A stretch of 64,000 nucleotides of DNA from Pristiophorus japonicus (lineage: Eukaryota), in the NCBI RefSeq assembly GCF_044704955.1, contig NC_091984.1, forward strand, positions 148,118,001 through 148,182,000. The letters run 5' to 3'. The notes below the pieces were generated by a model. The model was given only the letters and a program-made list of their open reading frames with translations. It was not told where the DNA came from and ran no database searches. This document shows, in pieces, positions 4,560-62,499 of this stretch. The translations under genes were made by a program, and so were the position numbers. How positions within the stretch are numbered: position 1 is the stretch's first letter; every line of letters starts with the position of its first letter.

Positions 4560-7500
4560 TAGAACATAAGAAATAGGAGCAGGAGTAGACCATATGGCCC
4601 CTCGAGCCTGCTCTGCCATTTAATATGATCATGGCTGATCCGATCATGGACTCAGCTCCACTTCCCTGCTTGCTCTCCATAACCCCTTATTCCCTTGTCG
4701 GTTAAGAAACTGTTTATTTCTGTCTTAAACTTATTCAATGACCCATCTTCCACAGCTCTCTAAGGCAGCGAATTCCACAGATTTACAACCCTCAGAGAAG
4801 AAATTCCTCCACATTTCAGTTTTAAATGGGCGGCCCCTTATTTTAAGATTATGCCCCAGAGTTCTTGTCTCCCATATCAGTGGAAACAGCCTCTCTGTAT
4901 CCACCTTGTCAAGCCCCCTCATAATCTTACATGTTTCGATAAGATCACCTTTCATTCTTCTGATTTCCATTCAGTATAGGCCCAACCTACTCAACCTTTC
5001 CTCATAAATCAATACCCTCATCTACAGAATCAACCTAGTGAACCTTCTCTGAACTGCCTCCAAAGCAAGTATATCCTTTCTTAAATATGGAAACTAAAAC
5101 TGCACGCAGTATTCCAGTTGTGGCTTCACCAATACCCTGGATAACTGTAGCAAACACTTCCTTGCATTTATACTCCATCCCCTTTGCAATAAAGGCCAAG
5201 ATTGCATTAGCCTTCCTGATCACTTGCTGAACCTGCATAATAACCTTTTGTATTTCATGCACCAGGACCCCCAGTTCCCGCTGTACTGCAACACTTTGTT
5301 ATTTTTCTCCATTTAAATAATAACTTGCTCTTTGATTTTTTTCTGAAAGTTTATAACCTCACTGTTTCCAACATTATACTCCATCTGCCAAATTTTTGCC
5401 CATTCACTTAGCCTGTCTATGTCCTTTTGCAGGTTTTTTGTGTCCTCCTCATACCTTGTTTTTACTCCTATCTTTGTATTGTCAGCAAACATGTCTACAT
5501 TACACTCGGTCCCTTCATCCAAGTCGTTAATATAGATTATAAATAATTGGGGCCCCAGCACTGATTCCTGCGGCACCCCATTAGTGACTGATTGCCAACC
5601 CGAGAATGAACCATTTATCACGATTCTGTTTTCTGTTAGTTAACCAATCCTCTATCCATGTTTATATATTACCCCAACTCCGTGAACTTTTATCTTGTGC
5701 ATTTAATGTGGTACCTTATCAAATGCCTTCTGGAAATCCAAATAAATCACATCCACTGGTTCCCCTTTATCCACCCTGCTTATTACATCCTCAAAGAATT
5801 CCAGAAAATTTGTCAAACATGACTTCCCCTTCATAAATCCATTCTGACATTGCCTGACTGAATTATGTTTTTCCAAATGTCCTGCTACTGTTTCTTTAAT
5901 AATGGACTACAACATTTTCCCAACAACAGATGTTAGGCTAACTGCTCTATAAGAACATAAGAATTAGGAACAGGAGTAGGCCATCTAGCCCCTCGAGCCT
6001 GCTCCGCCATTCAACAAGATCACGGCTGATCTGGCCGTGGACTCAGCTCCATTTACCCGCCCACTCCCCGTAACCCTTAATTCCCTTATTGGTTAAAAAT
6101 CTATCTATCTGTGATTTGAATACATTCAATGAGCAAGGCTCAACTGCTTCCTTGGGCAGAGAATTCCATAGATTCACAACCCTCTGGGAGAAGAAATTCC
6201 TTCTCAACTCAATTTTAAATTGGCTCCCCGTATTTTGAGGCTGTGCCCCCTAGTTCTAGTCTCCCCGACCAGTGGAAACAACGTCTCTGCCTCAATCTTG
6301 TCTATCCCTTTCATTATTTAAAATGTTTCTATAAGATCACCCCTCATCCTTCTGAACTCCAACAAGTAAATACCGAGTCTACCCAATCTATCATCATAAG
6401 GTAACCCCCTCATCTCCGGAATCAGCCTAGTGAATCGTCTCTGTACCCCTCCAAAGCTAATGTATCCTTCCTTAAGAAAGGTGACCAAAACTGCACGCAG
6501 TACTCCAGGTGCGGCCTCACCAATACCCTATACAGTTGCAGCAGGACCTCCCTGCTTTTGTACTCCATCCCTCTCGCAATGAAGGCCAACATTCCATTCG
6601 CCTTCCTGATTACCTGCTGCACCTACAAACTAACTTTTTGGGATTCATGCACAACGACCCCCAGGTCCCTCTGCACCGCAGCATGTTGTAATTTCTCCCC
6701 ATTCAAATAATATTCCCTTTTACTGTTTTTTTTCCCCCAAGGTGGATGACCTCACATTTTCCAACATTGTATTCCATCTGCCAAACCTTAGCCCATTCGC
6801 TTAACCTATCTAAATCTCTTTGCAGCCTCTCTGTGTCCTCTACACAACCTGCTTTCCCACTAATCTTTGTGTCATCTGCAAATTTTGTTACACTACACTC
6901 TGTCCCCTCTTCCAGGTCATCTATGTATACTGTAAACAGTTGTGGCCCCAGCACCGATCCCTGTGGCACACCACTAACCACCGATTTCCAACCCGAAAAG
7001 GACCCATTTATCCCGACTCTCTGCTTTCTGTTAGCTAGCCAATTCTCTATCCATGCTAATACATTTCCTCTGACTCCACGTACCTTTATCTTCTGCAGTA
7101 ACCTTTTGTGTGGCACCTTATTGAATGCCTTTTGGAAATCTAAATACACCACATCCATCGGTACACCTTTATCTACCATGCTCATTATATCCTCAAAGAA
7201 TTCCAGTAAATTAGTTAAACATGATTTCCCCTTCATCAATCCATGTTGCATCTGCTTGATTGCACTATTCCTATCTAGATGTCCCGCTAGTTCTTCCTTA
7301 ATGATAGCTTCAAGCCTTTTCCCCACTACAGATGTTAAACTAACCGGCCTATAGTTACCCACCTTTTGACTGCCCCCTTTTTTTAAACAGAGGCGTTACA
7401 TTAGCTGCTTTCCAATCCTCTGGTACCTCCCCAGAGTCCAGAGAATTTTGGTAGATTGTAACAAATGCATCTGCTATAACTTCCGCCATCTCTTTTAATA

Positions 7501-16809: not shown

Positions 16810-19060
16810 CAGAAGCCCACACAAATGGAGGTTTGTCCATGACCTACGAGCTGTGAATGAATCTACTATATTCTCACAATGCTTAAAGAAGGATTTGGAA
16901 TGAAGTATCCCGGAATGCTTTCCAGAGTCTTAGGCAGCCCCTCACTTCAGCACCAGCCTTGGGATTACCAGATTACACTCAGCTATTCAACTTATTTGTG
17001 CATCACAAGTCGGGTTTTGCACAATCTGTTTTGACTCAGTTACATGGGGACAGGCAGCGGCCGGTAGCGTATTTCAGTACCCAACTAGACCCAGTGACAC
17101 GCGGACTACCAAGATGTCTTCCTTCGTTGGCAGCAGCTTATTATGCTATGCAACAGGCTCAGACAATAACTCTAAATCATCAGACCATTTTGTATATCCC
17201 ACACTCTGTCGAGATTTTACTTACTAAATGTGCCACCCAACACCTAACCTCTGCAAGAACCACTAAATATGAAGTCGAACTGTTATCAAATCCGAACCTT
17301 ATCATCAAAAGATGCACTACCTTAAATCCAGCCACTCTACTCCCCACGGAAGAAGACGGCGAACCCCATTCATGTGAAATGGTAACCGAATTAGTGACTA
17401 AACCACGTATCAATCTAACAGATGTACCAATGTGTAACCCTGATTTAGTGTACTATGTTGACGGATCAGCCCTACGAAATGATAGGGGCCAACCTAGAGC
17501 GGCTTATGCAATTGTAATCCAGTTTAATGTTGTCGAAACAGTCTCTCTTCCAGACTCCTTTTCAGCCCAACAAGCCGAATTGTTTGCGTTAATTCGAGCC
17601 TGTATTCTGGCTGAAGGACAAACAGTTAATATCTACACTGACTCCAGGTATGCTTTTGGGGTATCACATGACTATGGACAAATTTGGAAGATTCGCGGGT
17701 ACCTGACTTCTTCAGGAACCCCTATCAAAAGTGGAAAATCTTCTGCAAGCCATTCAATGCCCCTTGAAACTTGCCATTATCAAATGCCAAGCACATACAG
17801 GCCAGTCGAATGAGGTGGCACTTGGGAATGCCAGAGCTGATAATGCAGCTAAGTCAGCAGCTGTGTCAAAAGGGGGGATGCAGGTGTCATTGTTCCCACT
17901 AAGGAAAAATAATTGCTCAGTCCCGCCACCCACTATTAATGACGTGCTGACCTTTCAGACACAGGCCAGTACGGAGGAGGTGGTGACCTGGACGAAGGAT
18001 CAATGTTATAAAAATCCAGAAGGAATATGGGTTCACCACGACGGCCGTGTGGTGGCCCCTAGATCCTTACTTCCATGGATAGCCCGATGTGTTCATACAT
18101 TCACACATGCAGGCAAAGGGGGATTGGCAGATTATATTTTGGCAACTTGGTATGCACCAGGTATTTCGGCAATTGCAAAACAAATCTGTGAAAATTGTGT
18201 TACCTGTCAGACAATGAATCCGGGTAAGACGGAAAAAGTAGAATCTGCCTCCCACCCAAATCCAGTCGGGCCTTTTGTACATTTACAAATGGATTTTATT
18301 GAATTACCTATGTGTATGGGATTCAAGTATGTATTAGGTATTGTAGATGTGTTCTCGAGATGGATTGAAGCCTTTCCATGTAAAAAGGCCAATGCCACTA
18401 CTGTTGCTAAATGTTTGTTAAAGGAAATCGTACCGTGCTTCGGAATCCCTGCCATGCTTTCTAGTGATAACGGGAACTGTTATAAGAGAAATGTGTAAAG
18501 CTTTGCAGGTTAATCAACGTTTTCATTGCAGTTATCATCCACAATCAGCTGGATTTGTTGAAAGATATAATGGAATGCTTAAAAATAAGCTGGCAAAATT
18601 ATGCAATGACACTGGACTGAAATGGACAGAACTGCTGCCTTTAGCTTTGATGGTAATGTGATCTGCAACCAACAGAACAAAAGGCCTGTCACCGCATGAG
18701 ATAGTTATGGGACGTCCCCAACGACTACCTTTTACAGCACCATTTACTGCAAAACAAATGGACATCCACAAAATGGAGGAAAATATGTTGAATTATTGTA
18801 TTGCACTAACCAAATGTATTTCCAGCTTTCATTCACAGGTAAAGGGAGCTCAAGTCAAGCCAGCGGAAGGAAGTGTCATAACCTGGAGCCAGGGGAATTT
18901 GTTTACATCAAGATTTTTAAAAGAAAAAGCAGTCTACAGCCAAGATTCGAAGGACCATACCAGGTCTTGCTGGCGACCAATACTGCAATCAAGGTAAAGG
19001 AAAGACCAACATGAATCCATGCATCCCATTGCAAACGGGCACCCGACCAGGAGGAAGGGA
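16810..19060 (+). pseudogene. pol: ERV pol remnant (RT fragment, connection, RNase H, integrase)
   Basis: KWRFVHDLRAVN at ~16823; SAPALGLPDY..RPVAYFS; RNase H YVDGS/SAQQAEL/IYTDSRYAF; IN HHCC, LQMDFI, SSDNG, YHPQSAG.VER, GPY. Frameshifts and stops; YxDD core missing. Confidence 0.9.
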
Positions 19061-28107: not shown

Positions 28108-28265
28108 AATAACGTGCTTTACCCCCTGACCCTCAGATGCTTTCCCTGACCCAGTCCCGAGAAGGAAGAGAGTAGAAATGCAGTGCTGACAATGACCTTT
28201 GCCCTCCCGGCTCACCCCCTGTTCTATTTAAAGTTGTGTCTCCCCCGCGGACTGTCCCTGACACA

Positions 28266-28594
28266 CTACGCACATTCTGCTCTCCTGACGCCCTTGCTGA
28301 GGGGAGAGGAGAGACTCTCGTGGGTGAGGCTGCAGGAGAAGCTGGCGTTGGACTCCCAGTCGGAGCCAGAGAGGGTCAGCAGGCTGCTGACACTGTAGGT
28401 GTTGTCCGAAGCTCGCAGGTAGTCGCTGGTCTGGACCCCGGCCGAAATGGTCGCCCCGTCCTTCTTCCACTCCACCTCCACCGCATCGGGGTAGAAGTGA
28501 TCGGCGAGGCACACCAGGGTGGCAGTGCCCTTGGTCGTGACCTCCTCCGGGGAGGGGGGCAGCAGGGTCAGCGTGGGTGGTGTCTTCCCTCAGC
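28266..28594 (-). pseudogene. IGKC: Immunoglobulin light chain constant exon, shark kappa (type III/NS4-like), with premature stop
   Basis: Acceptor ttctcctccctttcag, then GC TGA GGG AAG...: (S)*GKTPPTLTLLPPSPEEVTTKGTATLVCLADHFYPDAVEVEWKKDG...TYSVSSLLTLSGSDWESNASFSCSLTHESLSSPLSKGVRRAECA*. Both Ig Cys, the Trp and the penultimate Cys are intact. Confidence 0.93.
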
Positions 28595-31746: not shown

Positions 31747-34700
31747 TTAGTCCCTGTCAGGCCCATGCCTTGTGCGGCCTGATAGCCGCCTGGGTGCTAG
31801 GGTTTCCCCGCAGCCGGTGAGCTGGAGACCCTTGTCTCTGGGACAGCTCATTGCTACTGCTCCTGTGAGACCCTCACCGCTGGAGGCGGCTGGCTGGTGG
31901 TCCCTACTCTGAGCGGCCTCTGTACTTCTGACCTTCGGCCTTTCCTGTCGGGCTGCCCTTCTCCTAGGGTAGAATCGCTGAGGCTCAGATGCCAGTGACC
32001 ACAGTATCTTTGGCCGTGGTGTACGGAGGGTCCTTCTCAGGGCTTGGGTTACTGGGGGTGCGTCCGAATCCCAAACGATGGGTGGGATAGCCCCTCCAGT
32101 ACTGCAATTCACCGCCACTATAGGCACGGTTTCTGAGCCTGCCACATTCCCTGTGGCCCTCCACCGTCGGGGGCGGCCAACGGAGGGTCCCTGTCCTGAG
32201 GACGGTTCACCCCTCCCGGCTGCCCTCTGTGCTTGGCTGACCCTGGGTTGTACAGCTTGCACTGGTTGATGTGGAACCACTTAGTACGGTGGGGCAGCTT
32301 TATGGCACAGACCATCGGGCTTGCCTTGTCCACAATGCTGTATGGCCCCATATATAATGCTTCAAAAACACTGACCTGAGCATAGTTCCTCACCATGACC
32401 TGGTCCCCTATCTCCCATTCGTGGTGTTTGCTAGGTTCTAGCAGCAATTGGTTCCCCTGATGCTGTCTGCCCATGTTACTAGCAGCCTGCCAGTGAATCT
32501 GTTTGAGGTGTTCAAACAGGTTCCTGACAAACCGGTCCCGGTTCACCTCTCTGAGCTGACCTTCTGTGAGCACCGGGGTTCGGATATGGGTGGGGTTCCG
32601 CATGATCCGGCCAGTCATGAGCTCGTATGGGGAATATCCGATGCTCTTTGACTGGCTGGGCTCGGATCCCCATTAGGACCAACGGTAAGACCTCCACCCA
32701 CTTTTGGGGTGAGTCTCTCGTTTCCTTCCGCAGCTTTTCTTTAATGGTGCAGTTTAAATGCTCCACAATACCGGATGACTGTGGATTGTGGGCAACGTGC
32801 CATTTCCCCTCAATGCCGAGCACCTTAAGGGTTGCCTGCATTACCTGCCCGGTGAAATGGCTCCCCTGGTCCGACTCCACATACTGTGGGAGTCCCCACT
32901 GGGAGAACACTTCCCTCACTAGAATCTTAGCTGTCCCTCGTGCGGTGGCTGTTCGGCAGGGGAAGGCTTCAACCCATTTTGAGAACACGTCCATCAGGAC
33001 TCGGAAGTATTAGTAGCCTCCCTGGGCGGTGAGTAGGGGCCCGATGTAGTCAATTTGGATTGACTGCCATGGTCCCTCTACCCTCCTGACGTGTCCTAGG
33101 GACACCTTCCTTTTCTGGGGGTCAGGGTTGTTCGTAGCACACACCAGGCAGTTCGCACAGAACTCGCGGACATCCTCCTTGAGTCCCGGCCACCATCCTG
33201 CCTGTTCCACCCGTTGCCAGGTGGTCTCAGGCCCGGGGTGTCCCGCTCCTGGACCCTCATGGGCCAGTTTTAGGAATTCCCTCTGGTGCTGCTGTGGCAC
33301 GACCCATTGTCCCTCTTTAAACAGCATGCCTTCCTTAACGGTAATGGCTGCTGTGCCGTACGGACCTTCTACTCTCTCTCCTCTAGCTAGCACATTCAGG
33401 ACAGCTTTCAGGACTGGGTCCTGTGCCTGAACTGTTTTTAAGTCCGGGGCCAAAGCTATACCTGTACTCACCGCTGCCCTGTTCTTATTCTTGACCGCTG
33501 CTATGCGGCCGGTGTCATAGGGGTCCCAGAACTTTCCCGTGCGGGCACCTTCTTTGGCCAGTTTGTCAGCCTGTTGGTTTCCCTCTGCTAGGGGTTCAGT
33601 TTTTGAATGGGCCTTCACCTTATGTATGTAGACCTTTCTTTCTTCCCCCAAGATTTTCTCCAGCAGGGGCTTGATTGCCAGGGGTCTCCCATCAGCGGAC
33701 ATGTATCCGCGACGGGACCAGAGAGCCAGGTACTCCGTACATGAATTGCAGGTGAACATACTGTCCGAGCAAATCGTGTACGGAGTAGGGAATTCCTCGG
33801 GGTGGATCACCACGTACATTACGGCGGACAGTTCAGCGTGCTGGGCCCTCATGGTGCTGGGCAGCTTGATTGCCAGGGCAATATCTGCCCTTGGGTCATA
33901 GACTCCGCACCCAGTGAGTCATTCGCCAACAGATACCGTGCTGGACCCGTCCACGTAGATGTCCCGGCCTGTAGGGTGTAACCCAGCCTGAAGGCCAATG
34001 CTCACCTCCCATACCCCTTCTATGGAGCACCTGTGGGCTTTCCCAGGATAGATTAGGTTGGCTGCGAGCCTTGATCACGGGGGCCTTCTACTCTGAGGTC
34101 CATCTGGGAGAGGAGCAGGGTCCAGCGAGCAATGCGGGCACTGCTCACCGTCCTGTCCTTAATCCTCCCATCTAGGAGCATCTGAGTCGGTGTGTGGTGG
34201 GTTAGGAGTGTTAGAGGAGACCCTTCCGTGAAGATGAAAGATCTTTTCACTGCCCAATGTGTGGCTCGGAGATGTCTCTCACAGTTGGAGTACCACTTCT
34301 CCACATCTGTTGGGATACTGGAGGAGTAAACCACTAAGGCCAGTAAGGCCGTGCTGCTCTTGAAGCAGCACTGAGCTCAAATTGTCCCCGCTGGCTGCCA
34401 CCTCCAGGAAAAACTCCTTTCCTACATCTATCGTACCTGCAAGTCCTTCTTGAGCTGATTAAATGCTGCCTCGCAACCCTCATCCCAGTCCCACTCTACA
34501 CCCTTGTGTAGGAGCCTGAGCAGAGGGGCTGCAGTGGCTGCATAATCCTCAATGAAGTCTCTGTAGTACCCGGTGAGTCCTAGAAAGGATCTTACCCCTG
34601 TCACTGTGTTGGGGGCTGGTAACTCCTGTACTGCCTCCCTTCTAGCCTTGTCTATGGCCCTTTCCCCAGCACGCACAGTCAGCCCCAGGAATTTGACTTC

Positions 34701-35870: not shown

Positions 35871-37703
35871 TCATGCATCTGGGTGGGTTGGAGCAGAGGG
35901 TTTTACCGTACCGGCTACTGCACCAGTTGCGATAGCTACTGCTCCCTGTCCGTTTATGAGTGTCTGTAGGGCGGCTACGAGTGTCTCATATGAGTCGGGT
36001 GTTCCTGCCCCGGCCTTACGGGCTGGGGCTGAAGTGGCCTTTCCCTTAGTCCCTTTCCATGGGTTCCTACAGTTCTTCCTCCAGTGCCCACTTTTCCCAC
36101 ACCCAACACACTCGCCTCCTTTATGGGGAGGGTTCCCACTTTCCTGATGCCACTCTCTCTTGCCTTAGCTGGGTTTAATCTCATGGACCCTCCCTTTAGA
36201 GGAGGGCTCCTCTGTCCCTCTACCGTTCCGGTAAGCCAGGGTCAACTGTCTGACCACTGTCTCCTCGGTGGTTCTGGGATCTCTTGGATCGAACCAGACC
36301 TCGACTTTTGCCTTTACTCCAGGTAAGCTGTTTGCCACCAGGCTGCGGAGCCAGTGAGCCAGCTCGTTAGGGTTCAGGTGGGCCCGGTCAAGAACCCCAC
36401 TACAGGCCCTTTCGTAGACCGGCCACAACCTGTCGGCGAAAGCCTGTGGAGTCTCCCCATAGAGCTGCACTGTTTTCTCCACTCGGGAGAAAGGACTCCC
36501 GTCGTTCATACCCATGGCCTCTGGAACCTCCTCCTTAACTGTAGCGTACGTGTTTCGCCCCTTTCTGCTGTCTGCAGAGAGGGAATGGCACAGCTTGGTG
36601 TCTAGTGAGAAGAGCAACAGCTTAGCCTGCTCCGAATCATCGCACCCGTTAATATCCCCTGTGTGTTCCACTTCCAGGAAGTGTACCGAGGGATCCCCCT
36701 GTTGGGTGAGCTTACTTAGGTGGCCTATCATAGCCCTCAGTTTTTGGGTGTCGTGGGGGACTACGAAGTTGCATTCTAGGGGTCCTGCTGCCCCATTGGC
36801 ATCAGGCGGGCCAAACTTCTGCTGCCGGACCGGGTCCATTGGCCCTGGTTTCGGCCCTTCTTGTATTGGCTTGCCCTCTTCCCCCTGCTGCCAAGCCGAA
36901 TTAAAACTCGGGGCTGCCGGTGTTAGTAGTTCGTAATCCTTGCCTGCCCCGCACTCTGGCTGACACCCCTGCTGCCCGGGGCCATTCCTGGGAGCTACAG
37001 GTGGTGACTGAGGGGTTTCTCCTTGCCCAACCAGGTGTTCCTGGGCTAAACCCGGGTTTATCAGGCACACCATGCCTTTAGCCCAGGATAGAGCAAGGTT
37101 CAAGCTTTGGATCTGCTGCTGGCAGCGGCCGTGGTCTCCTGGCTCAAATTCCCTGGTACTGGCTACCTTATAGGCTACCTGAATGTGTCTCACCCTCTCC
37201 CCATACTCTTTAACTTGCTTGGCGAGGCAGGAATTCTCTTCCCGCAACGCCCGTTTGCTATTCTTGGCTTCAATAATCTGACACCGTAAAAGGTCCAGTT
37301 GGGTTTTGTGCCTTTCTTTAGTGAGCTCTCTACTTTCCTTTAACTGTCCCACCTCTGTCCACAACCTTTCCCCGACTGTGGCCCTTGCGCTGGACCTCTC
37401 TTCTGCCTGTCTCAATACTCCCTTTAATTTCTCATTCTCCTCATCTCGAAGCCGGGTCTGTTGCTGAAGGCAAATTAGCCAAATGGCCTTCTCTATCGTC
37501 CTTTTATGGTCCTTGTTATCGGTCCATTGAGCTGCAGCATCTTCTGGATGCTCAGCATACAATAGATCGATTACCCACTCCTTAGCCACATTTACCCTCT
37601 TAAACACATATGAGGAAATCTCCTCTTCCATTTTGCTTTGTTTCCTGAAACCAGTCTCTCTCTTATCACGTCCCTTGTACCAGTGTCCTATCTGGGTTGC
37701 CAT
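35871..37703 (-). pseudogene. gag: gag (coiled-coil N-terminus, capsid, CCHC knuckle, PSAP), single premature TAA
   Basis: The 512-aa ORF stops at TAA 36167-36165, but the same frame continues GKREW...CVGCGKSGHWRKNC...KPSAPTHPDA to TGA at 35873-35871. Confidence 0.88.
37685..37702 (-). promoter_or_regulatory. Primer binding site, tRNA-Arg
   Basis: TGGCAACCCAGATAGGAC, 2 nt after the LTR; 16/18 match to the complement of vertebrate tRNA-Arg(CCG) 3' end (TGGCGACCCAGATGGGAC). Confidence 0.75.
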
Positions 37704-37704
37704 G

Positions 37705-39238
37705 TGTAAGGGGTGGTTTGCAGAGGGTCAGCTTTCCCTTCTGACCTTATATGAGTGGTTCTGAATCGCTCCTACACCCTTGGTTCTAGACACTGGAATT
37801 ATGAAGGGACTGTGACAGACTTGGACAGACAATCGGTTTCAAGGTAGGAAGCAGGTATGGCTTTATTGTGTTTAAAAAGAAGTAAAAGGCACACCTTTAA
37901 TAACACACACACAGATCAATACACACTGAAGGGTACAACACATTGAATAAAATGTCAAATTACAGCCTGTGGGGAAAAGAATACAGCTTAAACTCTAAAT
38001 GTGGTAAAGAGGAGAATGCAGATACATTTACACAAGTTATCCCAGCCTCCCCCCTCCCAATTCCCCTAACTAACTAAGTTATAGCTCTGAGGGTTCAGGG
38101 GCTATGCTCACCAATCCCTTTAGACAGTTGTCGGTGAATCACGGTTTCGGGGTTTGCTGCACTTGGCCTTCTAGGCGAGCCATACCCCGGACGGAGGAGA
38201 GGACTTCGGACTGCGTAGTCTTCAGTTGGGGTGCGTCCGTTGATGCGGTAATTTGCGTTTCGGATGTATGGGATAAGTACCCACTTTCTTTGGTTTTAGT
38301 TAGTCCCTTTTGGTAATTTCTCACCCGTTGGCTGTTCAGAAGTAGATTGTAGAGTGGAGATAAATGTTGATTCTTCGGTTTTTGCTGAGTTGGTTTTGGT
38401 TGGTCGTTTCGCTGGTTGTGGTAGCCCGGGTTTGTCAATTTGGTTGCTGACAACCTTCCATTTCATGGGCCTCGTGCTCGGTCGGTCCTTGATGATTTCT
38501 TGTAGGTTGCTTCACGACTCCATTTCTTCACTCCGGCTGCTTGTGTCTGTCTGTGTTCTGTTCGTGTCTGTGTTCCTTTCGAGTCTATGTCCTGTTCGAG
38601 TCTGTGTTCTGCTAGTCCTGTATTCTGCTAGCTTTCCTTGTAAAACTGGGGTATAGATATATCCCAAAAAAAGGCTCCATTATCTCCCATCAAATCTCTT
38701 GGGCTCTGTTTAAGCTGTTCTGTCCATTGATTTTCAAATGTCTCCTTTGTCAGCAGTAACTTGATTAGGGTGTGAGAATGTGCTCTCATTGGTTTTGCAT
38801 TGTTTTAGGATTGTCCAGTTTTTCTGACCATGATTTCCATTTTACTTGATTGGGTAATTCGATTATCTCTTAGGGGGTGAATAGTTCCCCCAGACAGTCT
38901 GGGATCCTTATTACACGAATTTGCTTCAGACGTTGGCTCCACCTCCTGTATTTGGTAACTCTTTTTCGCAGCCAAAATGTTGTAGAATCTTAAAATCGAT
39001 ATGCTCCTTCCCATAGATGTTTAGGGGATCTCAAGCTTCTGTAATTTTGGTGCATTTTGAATTCCCTTTCCTATGAGTCCAAACACTGCGGGGGGGGGTC
39101 TCCATGAATGAATCCCCTTTTATCCCCCGCAGGCTTCGTCTGCCCCTTTAAACTCATTTTAAAAGCCCAGAACGGGATTCTTCTCCTCTGTAGGGGAAAG
39201 GTATCTGGAATCTTTGCGAGATATTGGTAAATTCTACA
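37705..39238 (-). repeat. 5' LTR (1534 bp)
   Basis: Direct repeat of 29602-31187. Confidence 0.95.
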
Positions 39239-40111: not shown

Positions 40112-42850
40112 ACAGAGGGATGATATGTTAGAAGGATCATCAAATGAGGCCATGTGGGTTAAACTGATTAACATAAAAGGGGCAATCACATTGCTGGGTG
40201 TGTAATATAGATCCCTAAACAGTCAGAGGGAGATCGAAGAGTAAATATGTCGGCAAATTGCTGAGAAGGTCAAAAACAATCGGCCAACAATAGTCGGGGA
40301 TTTCAACTCCCCTCACATTAACTGGGATGGAATCAGTGTCAAAGGTATAGAGGTCCCAGAATTCTTCAAATGCATTCAGGAGAACTTTTATAGCCAGTAC
40401 GTAGCAAGCCCAACAAGGGAGAGGGCGGTTCTGGGCTCAGTTTTAGGGAATGAAGCTGGGCAGGTGGGAAAGATATTTTGGTGCTAGTGATCATAATTCA
40501 GTTAGATTTAGCGTAGTTATGGAAAAGGACAAAGATGGAGCAGGAATAAAGGTTCTCAATTGTGGTAAGGCCCATTTTACTAAGCTGAGAGGTGATTTAG
40601 CAAAAGTGGGCTGGAAACAGCTACTTGAAGGTAAATCAGTGTCAGAGCTGTGGGAGGCATTCAAGGGGGAGATAGTAAGGGTTCAGAGCAAGTATGTTCC
40701 CACAAAGGAAAAGGGTGGCACTCCCAAATCTAGTTATGAGGAAAGATTGGATCGGTTGCAGTACAGTGGGACCTGGGGGTACTTGTGCATGAAACACAAT
40801 AGGATAGTATGCAGGTACAGCAAGTGATCAGGAAGGCCAATGGAATCTTCGCCTTTATTGCAAAGGGGATGGAGTATAAAAGCAGGGAAGTCTTGCTACA
40901 GCTATACAGGGTATTGATGAGGCCACACCTGGAATATTGCGTGCAGTTTTCGTTTCCATATTTACGAAAGGATATACTTGCTTTGGAAGCAATTCACAGG
41001 AGATTCACTCGGTTGATTCTGGAAATGAGGTGGTTGACTTTAGAGGAAAGGTTGAGTAGGTTGGGCCTCTACTCAATGGAATGCAGAAGAATGACAGGTG
41101 AACTTATGGAAACATATAAGATTATGAGGGGGCTTGACAAGGTGGATGCAGAGAGGATGTTTCCACTAATGGGGGAGACTAGAACAAGAGAGCATGATCT
41201 TAGAAGAAGGGGCCTCCCATTTACAACTGAGATGAGGAGAAATTTCTTCTCTCAGAGGATTGTACACCTATGGAATTTGCTGCCTCAGAGAGCTGTGGAA
41301 GCTGGGACATTGAATAAATTTACGACAGAGATTGACAGTTTCTTAAATGATAAGAGGATAAGGAGTTATTGGGAGCGGGGAAGTGGAGCTGAGTCCATGA
41401 TCAGATCAGCCATAATTTTATTGAATGGCGGAGCAGGCTCGAGGGGCCATATGGCCTACTCCTGTTCCTATTTCTTATGTTCTTATGTTGAAGGTAAATC
41501 AGTGTCAGAGCAGTGGGAGGCATTCAAGGGGGAGATAGTGAGGGTTCAGAGCAAGTATGTTCCCACAAAGGAAAAGGGTGGCACTCCCAAATCTAGAGCC
41601 CCTGGATGTCGAAGGGCATACAGGGTAGGTTAAGGCAAAAAAGGGAAGCTTATGTCAGATACCCAGAGCTAAATACTGCAGAAAGCCCAGAGGTGTATAG
41701 AAAGTGCAGGGGTGAAATTAAAAAGGAAATTAGGAATGCAAAGAGAGGGTATGAAAAAATATTGGCAAGTATAGTCAGGAAAAACTCAAAGATGTTTAAT
41801 AAATACATGAAAAGCAAGAGGATAACTAAAGAAAGAGTGTGGCCTATTGGAGACCAAAAAGGTAACCTGCGTGTGGAGGCAGAAATGTGGGAATAGTTAT
41901 AAATGAATACTTTGTATCTACCTTCACAGAAGAGAGGGACGATGCAGACATTGTAATTAAGGAAGACAAGTGTGAAATATTTGATGAGATAAACATAGTG
42001 AGTGAAGAAGTATTAAGGGGTTTAGCATATAATCTATTCAATGTTGTTAAGTGAAGCAAGGGAGGAAATAGCAGAGGCTCTGACCATAATTTTTCAATCT
42101 ACCCTGTTTCCAGGTGAGGTGTCGGAGGACTGGAGGACTGCTAACATGGTACCTTTGTTTAAAAAGGGGGAAAGAGATAGGCCGAGTAATAACAGGCCAG
42201 TCAGCTTAACCTCGGTGGTGGGAAAATTATTGGAAACAATTCCGAGGGAGAGGATAAATTGTCATATAGAAAGGGACGGATTAATCAAGGACAGTAAGCA
42301 TGGATTTGTTAAGGGAATGTTGTGCCTGACTAACGTGATTGAATTTTTTGCGGAGATAACAAGGAGGGTCGATGAGTGTTGCATTTTTGATATAGTCTAC
42401 ATGGATCTTTGCAAGGCTTTTGGCAAGGTCTCACATGGCAGAAAAGTAAAAAGCCCATGGGATCCAAGGGCAAGTGGCAAGTTGAATCCAAAAATGGCTC
42501 AGTGGCAGGAAGCAAAGGGTAATGGTCAACAAGTGTTTTTGTGACTGGAAGGCTGTTTCGAGTATTGTTCCGCAGGGCTCAGTACTAAGTCCCTTGCGCA
42601 TTGTAATATACACCAATGATTTAGAATTCAATGTAGGGGACATGATTAAGAATTTTCTGATGATACAAAAATTGGCTGTGCGATTGATAGTGAGGAAGAA
42701 AGCTGTAGACAGCAGGAAGATATCAATGGACTGGTCAGGTGGGCAGAACTGTGGCAAAAGGAATTCAATCCCGAGAACTGTGAGGTAATGCATTTGGGGA
42801 AGTCTAACAACGCAAATGAATACACATTACATGACAGGACACTGAGAATT
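40112..42850 (+). mobile_element. CR1 ORF2 (EN-RT) with a nested CR1 3' insertion (40734-41487)
   Basis: EN (GDFN, SDHN) and RT motifs; the nested copy has ORF 40809-41633 and a ttcttatg tail. Confidence 0.88.
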
Positions 42851-45645
42851 CCCTGGATTCTTGGGAGGTTCCAGCAGTTTGGAAATCTGCAAATGTAACG
42901 CCCCTATTTAAAAAAGGAGGCAGACAAAAAGCAGGAAATTATAGACCAGTTAGCCTAACATAACTGTGGTTGGGAAAATGTTGGAATCCATTATTAAAGA
43001 AGCAGTAGCAGGACATTTGGATAAGCAAAATTCGGTCAGGCAGAGTCAGCATGGATTTACGAAGGGGAAGTCATGTTTGACAAATTTTCTGGAGTTCTTT
43101 GAGGATGTAACGAATAGGGTGGATAAAGACTTCCAGCAGGCATTTGACAAGGTGCCACATAAAAGGTTACTGCACAAGATAAAAGTTCACGGGGTTTGGG
43201 GTAGTATATTAGAATGGATAGAGGATTGGCCAATGAACAGAAAACAGAGAGTCACGATAAATGGTTCATTCTCGGGTTGGCAATCCATAACAAGTGGGGT
43301 GCTGCAGGGATCAGTGTTGGGACCCCAACTATTTGCAATCTATATTAATGATTTGGATGAAGGGACCGAGTGTAACGTAGCCATGTTTGCTGATGATACA
43401 AAGATGGGAGTAAAAGCAATGTGTGAGGAAGACACAAAAAACCTGCAAAAAGGCATAGACAGGCAAAGTGAGCTGGCAAAAATTTGGCAGATTCAGTATC
43501 ATGTTGGAAAGTGTGAGGTTATGCACATTGGCAGAAAAAAATCAAAGAGCAAGTTTTATTCGAATAGAGAAAAATTGCAAAGTGCTGTAGTACAGCGGGA
43601 CCTGGGGGTAATTGTGCATGAAACACAAAAGGATAGTATGCGGGTACAGCAAGTGATCAGGAAGGCCAATGGTTTCTTGGCCATTATTGCAGTGGGAATG
43701 AAATATAAAAGCAGGGAAGTCTTGCTTCAGTTATATAGGGTATTGGTGAGGAATACTGCGTGCAATTTTGGTTTCCATATTTAAGAAAGGATATACTTGC
43801 TTTGGAGGCAGTTCAGAGAAGGTTCACTAGATTGATTCCAGAGCTGAGGGGGATTGTCTTTTGAGGAAAGGTTGAGTAGGTTGGGCATCTACTCATTGGA
43901 ATTCAGAAGAATGAGAGGTGATCTTATCGAAACATGTAAGATTATGAGGGGGCTTGACAAGGTGGATGCAGAGAGGATGTTTCCACTGATAGGGGAGACT
44001 AGAACTAGGGAACTGAGGTGAGAGTGAGATGAGGAAGAATTTCTTCTCTCAGAATCTTTAATCTCTAATTATTCTCTAATCTCCGGATTACTCCCGGTGC
44101 CACGAGCTAGTGAATACAGAAACAGGAGGATAGAGCAGATGAATGCGTGGCTGGAGAGATGGTGCAGGTGGGACGCTTTAGTTTCCTGAGGCATTGAGAC
44201 CGTTTCTGGGGAGGTGGGACCTCTACAAACCGGCCGGGTTGCTCCTCAACAGAGCCGGGACAATATCCTCGAGGGGAGCATTTGTTAGTCATGTTGGGGA
44301 GGGTTTAAACTAGCTTGGAAGGGGGATGGGAACCTGAGAATAGATTCAGTAGGGAGGGGACTAAAGCTGGAATTAGAAAGCAAAAATAAATAAAGTGAGT
44401 TTGAAGGAGAGAGGAAACAAGCAGATAAAAAGGGTAAAAAACAAATTCAAAGACTCTTTGTCTAAATTAGAAAATAGATGAGTTGACGGCACAAATAGAT
44501 ACAAATGAATATGATCTGATAGCCATTACAGAGACGTGGTTGCAAGGTGACCAGGACTGGGAACTAAATACTCAGGAGTCCTTGACAATCCGGAAGGACA
44601 GACAGAAATGTAAAGGAGGTGGGGTTGCTCCATTGATAAAGGATGGAATCACTGCAATAGTGAGAAATGATATTGGCTCAAATGATCAGGATGTTGAAAC
44701 AGTTTGGATGGAGATAAGGAATAATAAAGGGAAAAAGTCACTGATGGGCGTAGTCTATAGGCCCCCTAGCAGAAGCAACTCTGTTGGTCGGAGTATAAAG
44801 CAAGAAATAGTGGTGGCTTGTAAAAAGTGAACAGCAATAATCATGGGTGATTTTAACCTCCACATTGATTGGATAAATCAAATCAGGCAGGGTAGTCTTG
44901 AGGAAGAGTTCATAGAGTGCATAAGAGATGGATTCCCTGAGCAGTATGTAACGGAACCAACCAGGGGGCAGGCTATCTTAGATCTGGTCCTATGTAATGA
45001 GACAGTATTAATAAACAATCTCCTAGTAAAGGATACCCTTGGACTGAGTGATGATAACATGGTTCAATTTCAAATTCAGATGGGGTGGGGGGGTGAGAAA
45101 GTTGGATCTCTAACCAGCGTACTAAGCTTAAATAAAGGAGACTACAAAGGTATGAGGGCAGAGTTGGCTAAAGTGGACTGGGAAAATAGATTAAAGTATA
45201 GGACGGCTGATGAACAGTGGCGTACATATAAGGAGATATTTCACAACTCTCAAGAAAAATATATTCCAGTGAGGAGGAAATGGTGTAAAAGAAAAGATAG
45301 CCATCTGTGGCTAACTAAAGAAATAAAGGACGGTATCCAATTAAAAACAAGGGCATACAAAGGGTCCCAAACCAGTGGGAGGACTGAAGATTGGGAAGCT
45401 TTTAAAAGCCAGCAAAGAATGACTAAAAAAGTGATTAAGAAAGGGAAGATAGACTATGAAAGTAAACTAGCACAAAATATAAAAACAGATAGCAAGAGTT
45501 TCTATAGGTATATAAAAAGGAAAAGAGTGGCTAAAGTAAATGATGATCCCTGAGAGGACAAAACGAGGGAATTAATAATGGAAAACATGGAGATGGCAGA
45601 AACTCCGAACAAATATTTTGTATCAGTCTTTAGAGTAGAGGACAC
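42850..45645 (+). mobile_element. Stack of CR1 fragments (RT 42850-44055; ORF1 end + EN 44075-45645)
   Basis: ORFs 42966-43784 (FADD), 44483-44830 (AITETW, VYRPP), 44843-45553. Confidence 0.88.
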
Positions 45646-46612: not shown

Positions 46613-49495
46613 TCTATCTTTCCTTTCTTTATTGCTTCTTAGTCATTCTTTGCTGTCGTTTAAAATTTTCCCAATTTTCTAGTTTCCCACTAACCTTGGC
46701 CACCTTATACTCATTGGTTTTTAATTTGATACTCTCCTTTATTTCCTTGGTTATCCACGCCTGGTTATCCCTTCTCTTACCGCCCTTCAAAAGATAGACA
46801 AGAAGGGAAAGGAGGTGGGCTAGCTCTGTTAATAAAGGATGATATCAGAGCAGTTGTGAGAGATGATATTGGATCTAATAAACAAAATGTTGAATCATTG
46901 TGGATGGAGATTAGAGATAGTCAGGGGAAAAAGTCACTGGTGGGCGTAATTTATAGGCCCCCAAATAATAACTTCACAGTGGGGCGGACAATAATCAAGG
47001 GAATAATGGAGGCATGTGAAAAAGGAACGGCAGTAATCATGGGGGATTTTAACCTACATACCGATTGGTCAAATCAAATCGCACAGGGTAGCCTTGAAGA
47101 GGAATTCATAGAATGCATACGGGATTGTTTCTTAGAACAGTATGTTACAGAACCTACAAGGGAGCAAGCTATCTTAGATCTGGTCCTGTGTAATGAGACA
47201 GGAATAATAAACGATCTCCTTGTAAAAGATCCTCTCGGAATGAGTGATCACAGTATGGTTGAATTTATAATACAGATTGAGGGTGAGGGAGTCGTGTCTC
47301 AAACGAGCATACTATGCTTAAACAAAGGGGACTACAGTGGGATGAGGGCAGAGTTGGCTAAAGTAGACTGGCAACACAGACTAAACGGTGGCACACTTGA
47401 GGAACAGTGGAGGACTTTTAAGGAGCTCTTTCATAGTGCTCAACAAAAATATATTCCAGTGAAAAAGATGGTCGGTAAGAGAAAGGATAACCAGCCATGG
47501 ATAACCAAGGAAATAAAGGAGAGTATCAAATTAAAAACAATGCATATAAGGTGGCCAAGGTTAGTGGGAAACAAGAAGATTGGGAAAATTTTAAACGACA
47601 GCAAAGAATGACTAAGAAAGCAATAAGGAAAGGAAAGATCGATTATCAAAGTAAACTTGCGCAAAACATAAAAACAGATAGTAAAAGCTTTTACCGATAT
47701 ATAAAACGGAAAAGAGTGACTAATGTAAATGTTGGTCCCTTAGAAGATGAGATGGGGGATTTAATAATGGGAAATGTGGAAATGGCTGAGACCTTAAACA
47801 ATTATTTTGCTTCGGTCTTCAAAGTGGAAGACACAAAAACCATGCCAAAAATTGCTGGTCATGGGAATGTGGGAAGTGAGGACTTTGAGACAATCACTAT
47901 CACTAGGTGGGTAGTGCTGGACAGGCTAATGGGACTCAAGGTAGACAAGTCCCCTGGTCCTCATGAAATGCATCCCAGGGTATTAAAATAGATGGCGGAT
48001 GTTATAGCAGATGCATTCGTTATAATCTACCAAAATTCTCTGAACTCTGTTTAAAAAAGGGGGCAGAAAAAAGGCAGTTAACTAAAGGCCGGATAGTTTA
48101 ACATCTGTAGTGGGGAAAATGCTTGAAGCGATCATTAAGGAAGAAATGGCCGGACATCTAGATAGGAATAGTGCAATCAAGCAGACGCAACATGGATTCA
48201 TGAAGGGGAAATCATGTTTAACTAATTTACCGGAATTCTTTGAGGATATAATGAGCAAGGTGGATAGAGGTGTACCGATGGATGTAGAGTATTTGGATTT
48301 CCAAAAGGCATTCGACAAGGTGCCACATAAAAGGTTACTGCAGAAAATAAAGGTACGCGGAGTCAGAGGAAATGTATTAGCATGGATAGAGAATTGGCTA
48401 ACTAACAGAAAGCAGAGAGTTGGGATAAATGGGTCCTTTTCAGGTTGGCAATCGGTGATTAGTGGTGTGCCACAGGGATTGGTGCTGGGGCCACAACTGT
48501 TTACAATATACATAGATGACCTGGAAGAGGGGACAGAGTGTAGTGTAACAAAATTTGCAGATGACACAAAGATTAGTGGGAAAGCGGGTTGTGTAGAGGA
48601 CACAGAGAGGCTGCAAAGAGATTTAGATAGGTTAAGCGAATGGGCTAAGGTTTGGCAGATGGAATACAATGTCGGAAAATGTGAGGTCATCCACCTTGGA
48701 AAAAAAAACAGTAAAAGTGAATATTATTTGAATGAGGAGAAATTACAACATGCTGCGTTGCAGAGGGACCTGGGGGTCCTTGTGAATGAATCACAAAATG
48801 TTAGTTTGCAGGTGCAGCAGGTAATCAGGAAGGCAAATGGAATGTTGGCCTTCATTGCGAGAGGGATGGAGTACAAAAGCAAGGAGGTCCTGCTGCAACT
48901 GTATAGGGTATTGGTGAGGCCGCACCTGGAGTACTGCGTGCAGTTTTGGTCACCATACTTAAGGAAGTATATACTAGCTTTGGAGGGGGTACAGAGACGA
49001 TTCACTCGGCTGATTCCGCAGATGAGGGGGTTACCTTATGATGATAGATTGAGTAGACTGGGTCTTTACTCGTTGGAGTTCAGAAGGATGAGGGGTGATC
49101 TTATAGAAACATTTAAAATAATGAAAGGGATAGACAAGATAGAGGCAGAGAGGTTGTTTCCACTGGTTGGGGAGACTAGAACTAGGGGGCACAGCATCAA
49201 AATACGGGGGAGCCAATTTAAAACCGAGTTGAGAAGGAATTTCTTCTCCCAGAGGGTTGTGAATCTGTGGAATTCTCTGCCCAAGGAAGCAGTTCAGGCT
49301 AGCTCATTGAATGTATTCAAGTCACAGATAGATAGATTTTTAACAATAAGGGAATTAAGGATTATGGGGAGCGGGCGGGTAAGTGGAGCTGAGTCCACGG
49401 CCAGGTCAGCCATGATCTTGTTGAATGGCGGAGCAGGCTCGAGGGGCGAGATGGCCTACTCCTGTTCCTAATTCTTATATTCTTATGTTCTTATG
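46613..49495 (+). mobile_element. Young CR1 LINE (ORF2 EN-RT; 453-aa open RT/C-terminus) nested in an older CR1
   Basis: ORFs 46856-47611, 47497-47991, 48110-49471; same subfamily as 5951-9259; host CR1 sequence resumes at 49496. Confidence 0.95.
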
Positions 49496-61529: not shown

Positions 61530-61752
61530 AAAGAGGAAGTAATGGAGAGAGAGAGGGAGGGATGGAGAGAGAGGGGGGGATGGAGAGAGAGGGGGGGAAT
61601 GGAGAGAGGAAGGGAGAGGGAGGTGAAGAGGGAGGGAGACAGACGGGGAGAAGAAGAGGAAGTGAAATGTGCTGATGTGGCTTTCTCTGGGTGAAGACAT
61701 TTACATACTGAGAGATGGGCAGTGAGACTCTCTCAGGCTGCAGGTTTATAAA
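61530..61752 (+). promoter_or_regulatory. Ig V-kappa promoter
   Basis: PU.1 box AAGAGGAAGT 61531-61540; Ets-IRF element GAGGAAGTGAAA 61656-61667; octamer variant ATTTACAT 61699-61706; TATAAA 61747-61752, 60 nt before the ATG. Confidence 0.75.
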
Positions 61753-61811: not shown

Positions 61812-62375
61812 ATGATTTCACCCATCCAGCTGATCTGGCCTCTGGCATTCTGCGTCGCAGGTACCAATCTCTCTCCTTCCACGTTTAATATCTCCCTGCT
61901 GTCGATTTCTGTCCAACTCTACTGACCAGTGATTGAAGGGCAAATGCTGACACTAGAGGAGAGCTCAGTGTCTCGAGCAACCTCTCATTTTACAGCGTCT
62001 TTCTGTGACAGTGTTTACTTCACTTTCTTTCCCCATTTCCCCCTCAGGTATCAGTGGGGACGTCATCATGACCCAGTCTCCCCCGGTGCTGTCAGTGAGT
62101 GAGGGACAGACTGCAACCATCACCTATACCGCCAGTGCATCCGCCAGCAATGATGTTCATTGGTACCAGCAGAAAGCCGGGCAGAAACCCACTCTGCTGA
62201 TCTATAATGCAGTATCTCGTTTCACTGGAACCTCCAATCGCTTCACCGGCAGTTACCAGTCCAACACGTACACCCTGAGCATCAGCAACGTGCAGAGAGA
62301 AGATGTCGCAGTCTATTACTGTCAGCAATATTACAGCTCCCCTCACGTTCAGTAAAGGAACCAAGCTCAGACTGA
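61812..62375 (+). pseudogene. IGKV: Germline-joined Ig light chain L-VJ, shark kappa (type III/NS4-like), out of frame
   Basis: Leader exon 61812-61860 MISPIQLIWPLAFCVA(G), GT-AG intron 61861-62047. Exon 2 GISGDVIMTQSPPVLSV...ITYT...WYQQKAGQKPTLLIY...EDVAVYYCQQYYSSP is fused directly to J TFSKGTKLRL in the +1 frame. Donor GTAAGT at 62376. Confidence 0.95.
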
Positions 62376-62499
62376 GTAAGTAAACCCCAATGCTCCGTTA
62401 TTAACACTTTAAATACTGAATCTTTCCAAGACACAAATGCTGAATATGCGAAGGTGTTAGTTTACATATGATTACACTCGAGCCTCCCGTCTTTTCTCA

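Follow-up and report, generated by a model that had tools for sequence, protein, structure and literature searches.

A probable germline-joined kappa pseudogene of the shark Pristiophorus japonicus, with V and J fused on a three-nucleotide overlap

An immunoglobulin kappa gene of Pristiophorus japonicus has its V segment fused directly to J. In our judgement it is quite probable that this pseudogene arose when the two segments were joined on a shared CTC in a germ cell or early embryo, likely through RAG cutting followed by end-joining without TdT, and that the joined gene is likely inherited. The gene lies in a stretch of 64,000 nucleotides, hereafter the window (NC_091984.1, positions 148118001-148182000, given below as C8:148118001-148182000 of a 5.9-Gb assembly). 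Germline-joined kappa genes, one of them frameshifted, have been known since 2000; what is new here is an unusually clean and recent example together with its exact parent.

Structure and identity of the fused gene

V abuts J at 62344/62345 (AGC TCC CCT C ACG TTC AGT AAA GGA), and a scan for RSSs found none near the gene. The other features of the gene are collected in Table 1. The octamer-like element of the putative promoter is one base off the octamer consensus, which we take to be ATTTGCAT. An intact, open C exon lies 7.9 kb 3' of J, at about C8:148188265, beyond the window. A preliminary description, made from the letters of the window alone, had placed J in the +1 frame with an in-frame TAA and a retained GTAAGT donor, and the sequence bears this out. 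A processed retrocopy, which that description had also rejected, is ruled out by the retention of both the leader intron and the 7.9-kb J-C intron. The loss of Cys23, the FSKG motif and the CTC overlap (positions in Table 1) are features that it had not mentioned.

Table 1. Features of the joined kappa gene, in window coordinates
Feature	Position	Strand	Basis
Octamer-like element ATTTACAT	61699-61706	+	Same letters in three split paralogs; putative function
TATA-like box	61747-61752	+	Sequence; putative function
Leader exon, ATG at 61812, MISPIQLIWPLAFCVA plus 1 nt	61812-61860	+	Sequence; matches NS4 leader primer
Leader intron, 187 nt, GT...AG	61861-62047	+	Sequence
Kappa V exon, open to the junction; parental last 2 coding nt (TA) missing	62048-62344	+	Pfam V-set, E 5e-16; 100% identity with split copies on C113 and C1231
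Cys23 to Tyr (TAT), older than the join	62125-62127	+	Comparison of V copies
CTC microhomology, 3 nt, coding joint	62342-62344	+	Common to V end and J start of split sisters
J segment, +1 frame, FSKG instead of FGKG (change at 62351-62353)	62345-62375	+	FSKG also in split sisters
Premature stop TAA in V frame	62353-62355	+	Ends 20 nt before J splice donor
J splice donor GTAAGT	62376-62381	+	A contig from run X5 follows the window up to 62375, then passes into the C exon for 30 nt

The gene is identified from its sequence as a shark immunoglobulin kappa (NS4/type III) cluster, on the strength of primer matches, intron length and the RSS layout of its unrearranged relatives. In the kappa layout a 12-spacer RSS lies 3' of V and a 23-spacer RSS 5' of J, and this arrangement was found in the split sisters described below. 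Two primers given by Lee et al. (2000; PMC2193156), the nurse-shark NS4 leader primer NSL and the NS4 J primer JL5, have a single match apiece in the window, that of NSL at 61814 (two mismatches allowed and one counted by eye in each case); the leader intron of nurse-shark NS4 is reported there as 186 nt. The best PDB matches of the V domain were antibody light-chain domains and engineered antibody fragments.

The gene does not encode a functional germline-joined light chain, having a frameshift, a Tyr at Cys23 and FSKG in its J segment. The two substitutions are shared with its split sisters: among the 61 V copies examined, TAT at Cys23 occurs in six, namely three joined copies and three split sisters, while the other 55 have TGT. 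The parent was crippled by both changes before the join; we infer that, with its parent already defective, the join cannot have been favoured by selection for an antibody chain. The predicted product, comprising a leader, a V domain without its first cysteine, a J strand and a C domain, is most likely non-functional. Nonsense-mediated decay follows a rule of 50-55 nt before the last exon junction; because the premature stop ends 20 nt before that junction, the RNA may escape decay.

The coding joint

Three split sisters of the gene were found, at C113:38264, C1231:354786 and C8:148426803, with V 99.7-100% identical to that of the joined gene and the same FSKG J; the C113 copy is identical to the joined gene across promoter, V and J. 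In these sisters the V segment ends as ...CC-CTC-TA|CACTGTG-12-ACAAAAACC and the J segment begins as GGATATTGT-23-CACTGTG|G-CTC-ACG. A 12-RSS, a spacer of about 1.5 kb (1503-1575 nt between V and J anchors) and a 23-RSS sit exactly at the point where V meets J in the joined gene, which confirms the fusion without RSS read in the preliminary description. The joined gene corresponds to the sister ends minus both RSSs, the intervening DNA and six coding nucleotides, with no bases inserted. The alignment to unjoined paralogs that had been proposed as a check thus fixed the extent of trimming, and the absence of N nucleotides, first noted in the joined gene only, holds against the parental ends. 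P nucleotides are likewise absent; trimmed coding ends would not retain them, and no P nucleotide records a hairpin. The parental ends meet on their common CTC.

The gene has the marks of a germline-joined immunoglobulin gene: V and J are directly joined and nothing is left of either RSS or of the spacer, it derives from split ancestors, being nested among split sisters with a support of 100/100, and its coding ends were trimmed with little or no N addition (6 nt lost, none added). A blunt join of the parental ends would already have been in the +1 frame and a loss of 6 nt keeps that frame; the joining event itself thus put the gene out of frame. As a join on the parental CTC gives exactly the present frame, no later loss of 2 nt is needed. 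The CTC overlap is present at both positions in 42 of 53 split clusters, and, if trimming were flat, 5-12% of joins would be expected to have this junction. A join between clusters, with V from one copy and J from another, was rejected, because the sequence tracks one and the same sister, C113, on both sides of the junction (for 1.58 kb on the downstream side). A search of the assembly for a reintegrated precise signal joint with one exact pattern gave no matches, which is not proof of absence.

Copies of the gene and a second joined gene

The J pattern has 59 matches in the assembly, 44 on C8 and 15 on unplaced contigs. The regions examined numbered 64, made up of 58 of these 59 matches and six others; the match left out, C53:106367, has a split heptamer. 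Both V and J are present in 57 of the 64 regions, of which 53 are split and four joined. All four joined clusters share the same junction; three are copies of the window gene (on C8, C1231 and C53) and the fourth is a different gene at C8:146964276. All 53 split clusters keep both RSS borders, and none of them has a similar deletion ending away from the RSSs. The FSKG pattern has eight matches, consisting of the three joined copies, the three split sisters and two from another clade, with no fourth sister. The in-frame paralogs with the same junction that the preliminary description had proposed to look for did not turn up in the exact-junction and J censuses, all four joined clusters having the out-of-frame junction.

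The gene at C8:146964276 (L004) is an older joined kappa gene with the same CCCTC|ACG junction. Its CDR3 and J differ from those of the window gene, it has kept Cys23, and it carries several replacement changes; it is 94.7% identical to its nearest split V region, and the 30 kb downstream of it yielded no C exon. A tree was built from 54 of the 57 clusters (three with a disrupted V 5' end were left out); in it the joined state requires at least two origins, as forced by the starred branches, and a single origin is allowed by 0% of 200 bootstrap trees. At the bases 6 nt before and 7 nt after the junction, the window gene matches its split sisters and not C8:146964276. Given the chance of 5-12% per join, two matching joins are only suggestive of a microhomology bias and do not prove it.

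The three joined copies of the window gene have one differing site over 40 kb. Those on C1231 and C53 differ at six sites in 100 kb, while those on C8 and C1231 have one difference between -28.4 and +21.3 kb; beyond this block, C8 and C1231 are 99.5% identical at +22 to +42 kb and 95-97% farther out, and they do not align upstream of -51 kb. Nor do C8 and C1231 have joined and split copies in the same order. One end of C1231 matches C8:146.1-146.3 Mb, after which the cluster order departs, and C1231 may be a structurally different haplotype. The nearest split copy, on C113, differs from the joined copy of C1231 by 18 substitutions in 36.7 kb upstream and is 98.9-99.3% identical to it downstream. 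The locus is a mosaic, with a switch in ancestry 1.6 kb downstream of J.

The kappa array, on C8:143.5-148.6 Mb and C1231, has about 45-50 clusters in mixed orientation and repeated units of ~250 kb. The split sister at C8:148424914-148426829 has a damaged V heptamer (CACTGGT, not CACTGTG) and for this reason probably rearranges poorly. Three related split clusters, at C8:143586457, 145396692 and 147523232, are without the V splice acceptor region and have a 1-nt deletion in J. In an outlying cluster 11 Mb from the main array (C8:159520007-159564841), V is read from the minus strand and J-C, 37 kb away, from the plus strand. The break falls within the spacer, both RSSs survive, and the cluster could rearrange by inversion only. 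Within the window, an orphan kappa C exon at 28260-28594 (minus strand) is 99% identical to the C exon of the joined gene, has TGA as its first full codon and matched no V or J partner in the window; a second orphan C lies on C8 ~77 kb upstream of the junction. The window also contains retroelement fragments (6703-7395, 16887-17813, 33010-33918, 42954-43784 and 46730-49471) with reverse transcriptase, RNase H, integrase zinc finger and LINE-type endonuclease domains, as well as an open frame of 520 aa (36165-37727, minus strand) and one of 276 aa (40803-41633), neither of which matched Pfam.

Origin of the join and alternative explanations

It is very likely that the V-J join is of germline origin, because it is found on three contigs in two contexts with no unrearranged twin, and because the junction is present in sequencing runs X3 and X5. 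A somatic join would leave the unrearranged twin as the majority allele; searches with the FSKG pattern and private substitutions found no unrearranged allele with the flanks of the joined copy in the assembly, which argues against a somatic origin. The DNA-type run X3 yielded a 57-nt contig at 62315-62371 with a depth of 15 and no differences. This is exactly the span of 27 junction-specific 31-mers that are absent from all other clusters compared, although the contig, with 30 and 27 nt on the two sides, falls below the bridging bar of 31 nt. In run X1, from the same sample (S1), three V-RSS contigs account in full for the depth of 41.9 at 62335-62339; S1 is possibly the sample of the assembly itself, its tissue not being on record. 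Run X5 (sample S2, study P2) yielded a 108-nt contig with a depth of 17.6 that matches 62298-62375 exactly before passing into the C exon. This contig is a spliced VJ-C product, made up of 47 nt of V, 31 nt of J and 30 nt of C. The V, J and C bases that it covers do not distinguish the copies, so the transcript could stem from a somatic join of a split sister; the kind of run, tissue and individual of X5 are not on record. The coverage of run X6 misses the junction, and runs X7 and X8 (organisms B and C), which have little power, showed no join and a single split-J contig each.

It is improbable that the assembler captured a somatic V-J join carried by a B-cell clone of the sequenced tissue. 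Such a clone would be compatible with the identity of the split C113 copy over promoter, V and J and with the lack of a junction contig in X1, and none of the source tissues is recorded as sperm or non-lymphoid; moreover, the joined copies are near-identical over 50 kb and could be one locus assembled three times. However, a 243-Mb scaffold has the join on its main path, two further contigs have it too, and the joined copy has 21 private substitutions within 8 kb on each side that are found in none of the three split sisters. The depth of 15 at the X3 junction, when compared with 354.5 as the sum over all ~60 loci of the J family, also speaks against a somatic clone, the comparison being rough since depth is no copy number. 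The same junction occurs in a second sample (X5), and somatic NS4 joints of nurse shark are described as often having N bases (PMC2193156). The preliminary description had argued for a germline join from its out-of-frame state. The germline origin is supported by copy structure and runs, but that argument for it is weak, and the frame is no proof in itself, because B cells do carry non-productive joins.

The alternatives that accept a germline event have still smaller chances. An in-frame germline join with a 9-residue CDR3 that later lost 2 nt, the second option of the preliminary description, is highly improbable: the junction is indeed 2 nt short of the common in-frame product, and most of the nurse-shark joined genes are in frame (four of six; PMC2193156), but the CTC overlap yields the sequence in one step, two clades would each have to have suffered the same loss, no in-frame joined paralog occurs among the 57 clusters with V and J, and in a parent already without Cys23 an in-frame join would not have been favoured. 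Gene conversion, copying the junction into a split cluster from an older joined gene or a cDNA, is equally improbable and largely refuted. It would account for the identity of the junction with that of C8:146964276 and fits the mosaic locus, with its ancestry switch downstream of J, yet the bases close to the junction follow the split sisters and not the older gene, a tract of less than 12 nt would be required while deleting 1.5 kb, and both introns are kept. Microhomology of 3 nt is common at deletions made by ordinary repair, so the overlap here, like the lack of P bases, would suit a RAG-independent deletion of the V-J spacer by slippage or alternative end-joining. This is nonetheless very unlikely, the least probable of these accounts, as both ends lie within 5 nt of the heptamers (~1e-5 per event, a crude figure that assumes uniform breakpoints), the deletion would have occurred in two clades, and deletions ending away from the RSSs are missing from the 53 split clusters.

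The preferred reading remains an unselected germline join, the other option of the preliminary description, which is supported by the exact fit of the parental CTC join to the present frame and by an independent gene with the same junction. In a germ cell or early embryo, RAG would likely have cut at the 12-RSS and 23-RSS. Trimming would then have taken the coding ends back to the CTC overlap, to be ligated with no N nucleotides added, presumably where TdT was low, and with loss of the spacer; the joined chromosome would have been inherited and later reshuffled within the tandem array. We infer RAG as the cutter because the ends lie 2 and 1 nt inside a 12/23 RSS pair. Microhomology may have guided the join: among TdT-free joins made in vitro, nearly 60% are reported to use 1-2 nt of microhomology, which biases both trimming and ligation, most strongly without TdT (PMC11963759).

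The join appears to be young. At 7e-10 per base per generation, the rate reported for the epaulette shark (PMC10587355), about 350,000 generations would account for the distance to C113 on the upstream side. This is a loose upper bound and a rough figure, the rate being from another species and the locus a mosaic. The single difference between joined copies corresponds to about 14,000 generations, a rough figure that rests on one site and the rate of another species. C113 may be the split allele of the joined copy, which would make the join a polymorphism.

Discussion

The closest known genes are the germline-joined NS4 genes of nurse shark, for which Lee et al. (2000; PMC2193156) describe six members (R4, R7, R18, RE18, R6 and R19) from at least five joining events. 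According to that account, R19 has a frameshift in CDR3 and omission of one CDR3 nucleotide restores its frame, some members have P nucleotides, there is little sign of TdT activity, the youngest join is 0-7 Myr old, and joined genes are expressed in pups. The window gene resembles them in isotype, full excision of the RSSs, trimmed ends, little sign of TdT and multiple recent origins. Joined genes are a minority of clusters in both species, about 10% in nurse shark as reported and 2 of 44 clusters with V and J on C8 here. The V-J spacer is 1.3-2.0 kb in all clusters here but one (5.6 kb), in contrast to about 0.5 kb in nurse shark, and both joins here are out of frame, whereas in nurse shark four of the six are in frame and two are pseudogenes. 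The window gene differs further in that its ends are fixed by a sister identical in V and J, that it has no P bases, that its parent was already defective, and that two independent joins share one microhomology junction. According to a commentary on the nurse-shark work (PMC2193153), Lee et al. found no joined/split polymorphism.

The joint also resembles TdT-free in vitro joins and those of neonatal mice as described in PMC11963759, with interior germline-encoded microhomology, trimming on either side and nothing inserted. Such joints form somatically, in lymphocytes, whereas the window joint is likely fixed in the germ line. Like lambda/type II in sharks, sigma-2/type I in skates and IgM1gj (PMC5192425), the gene is a pre-joined antigen-receptor gene of a cartilaginous fish. 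Those genes are described as in frame and expressed as antibody chains, whereas the window gene cannot encode a light chain. We found no paper that connects microhomology with the germline-joined immunoglobulin genes of sharks in a search that excluded most subscription journals, and we do not claim that the connection is unpublished.

Selection for a pre-made antibody cannot explain the join, since the parent was already defective. Together with a second gene that independently took the same junction, this argues that germline joining is a neutral side effect, destructive to clusters in most cases, and that the useful in-frame genes are the minority kept by selection. More tentatively, germline V(D)J recombination may be ongoing, neutral and stereotyped, with the CTC overlap repeatedly killing kappa clusters where TdT is missing and the window join still segregating against C113; we regard this fuller picture as possible but rather doubtful. 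If it is true, one junction-specific assay of sperm DNA could measure the rate of germline RAG activity directly. The case for such activity in sharks rests largely on a few nurse-shark clones with assumed parental ends, whereas here the ends are read from sisters. The junction offers a single sequence for assay in sperm and in populations, and the joined copy is a candidate joined/split polymorphism.
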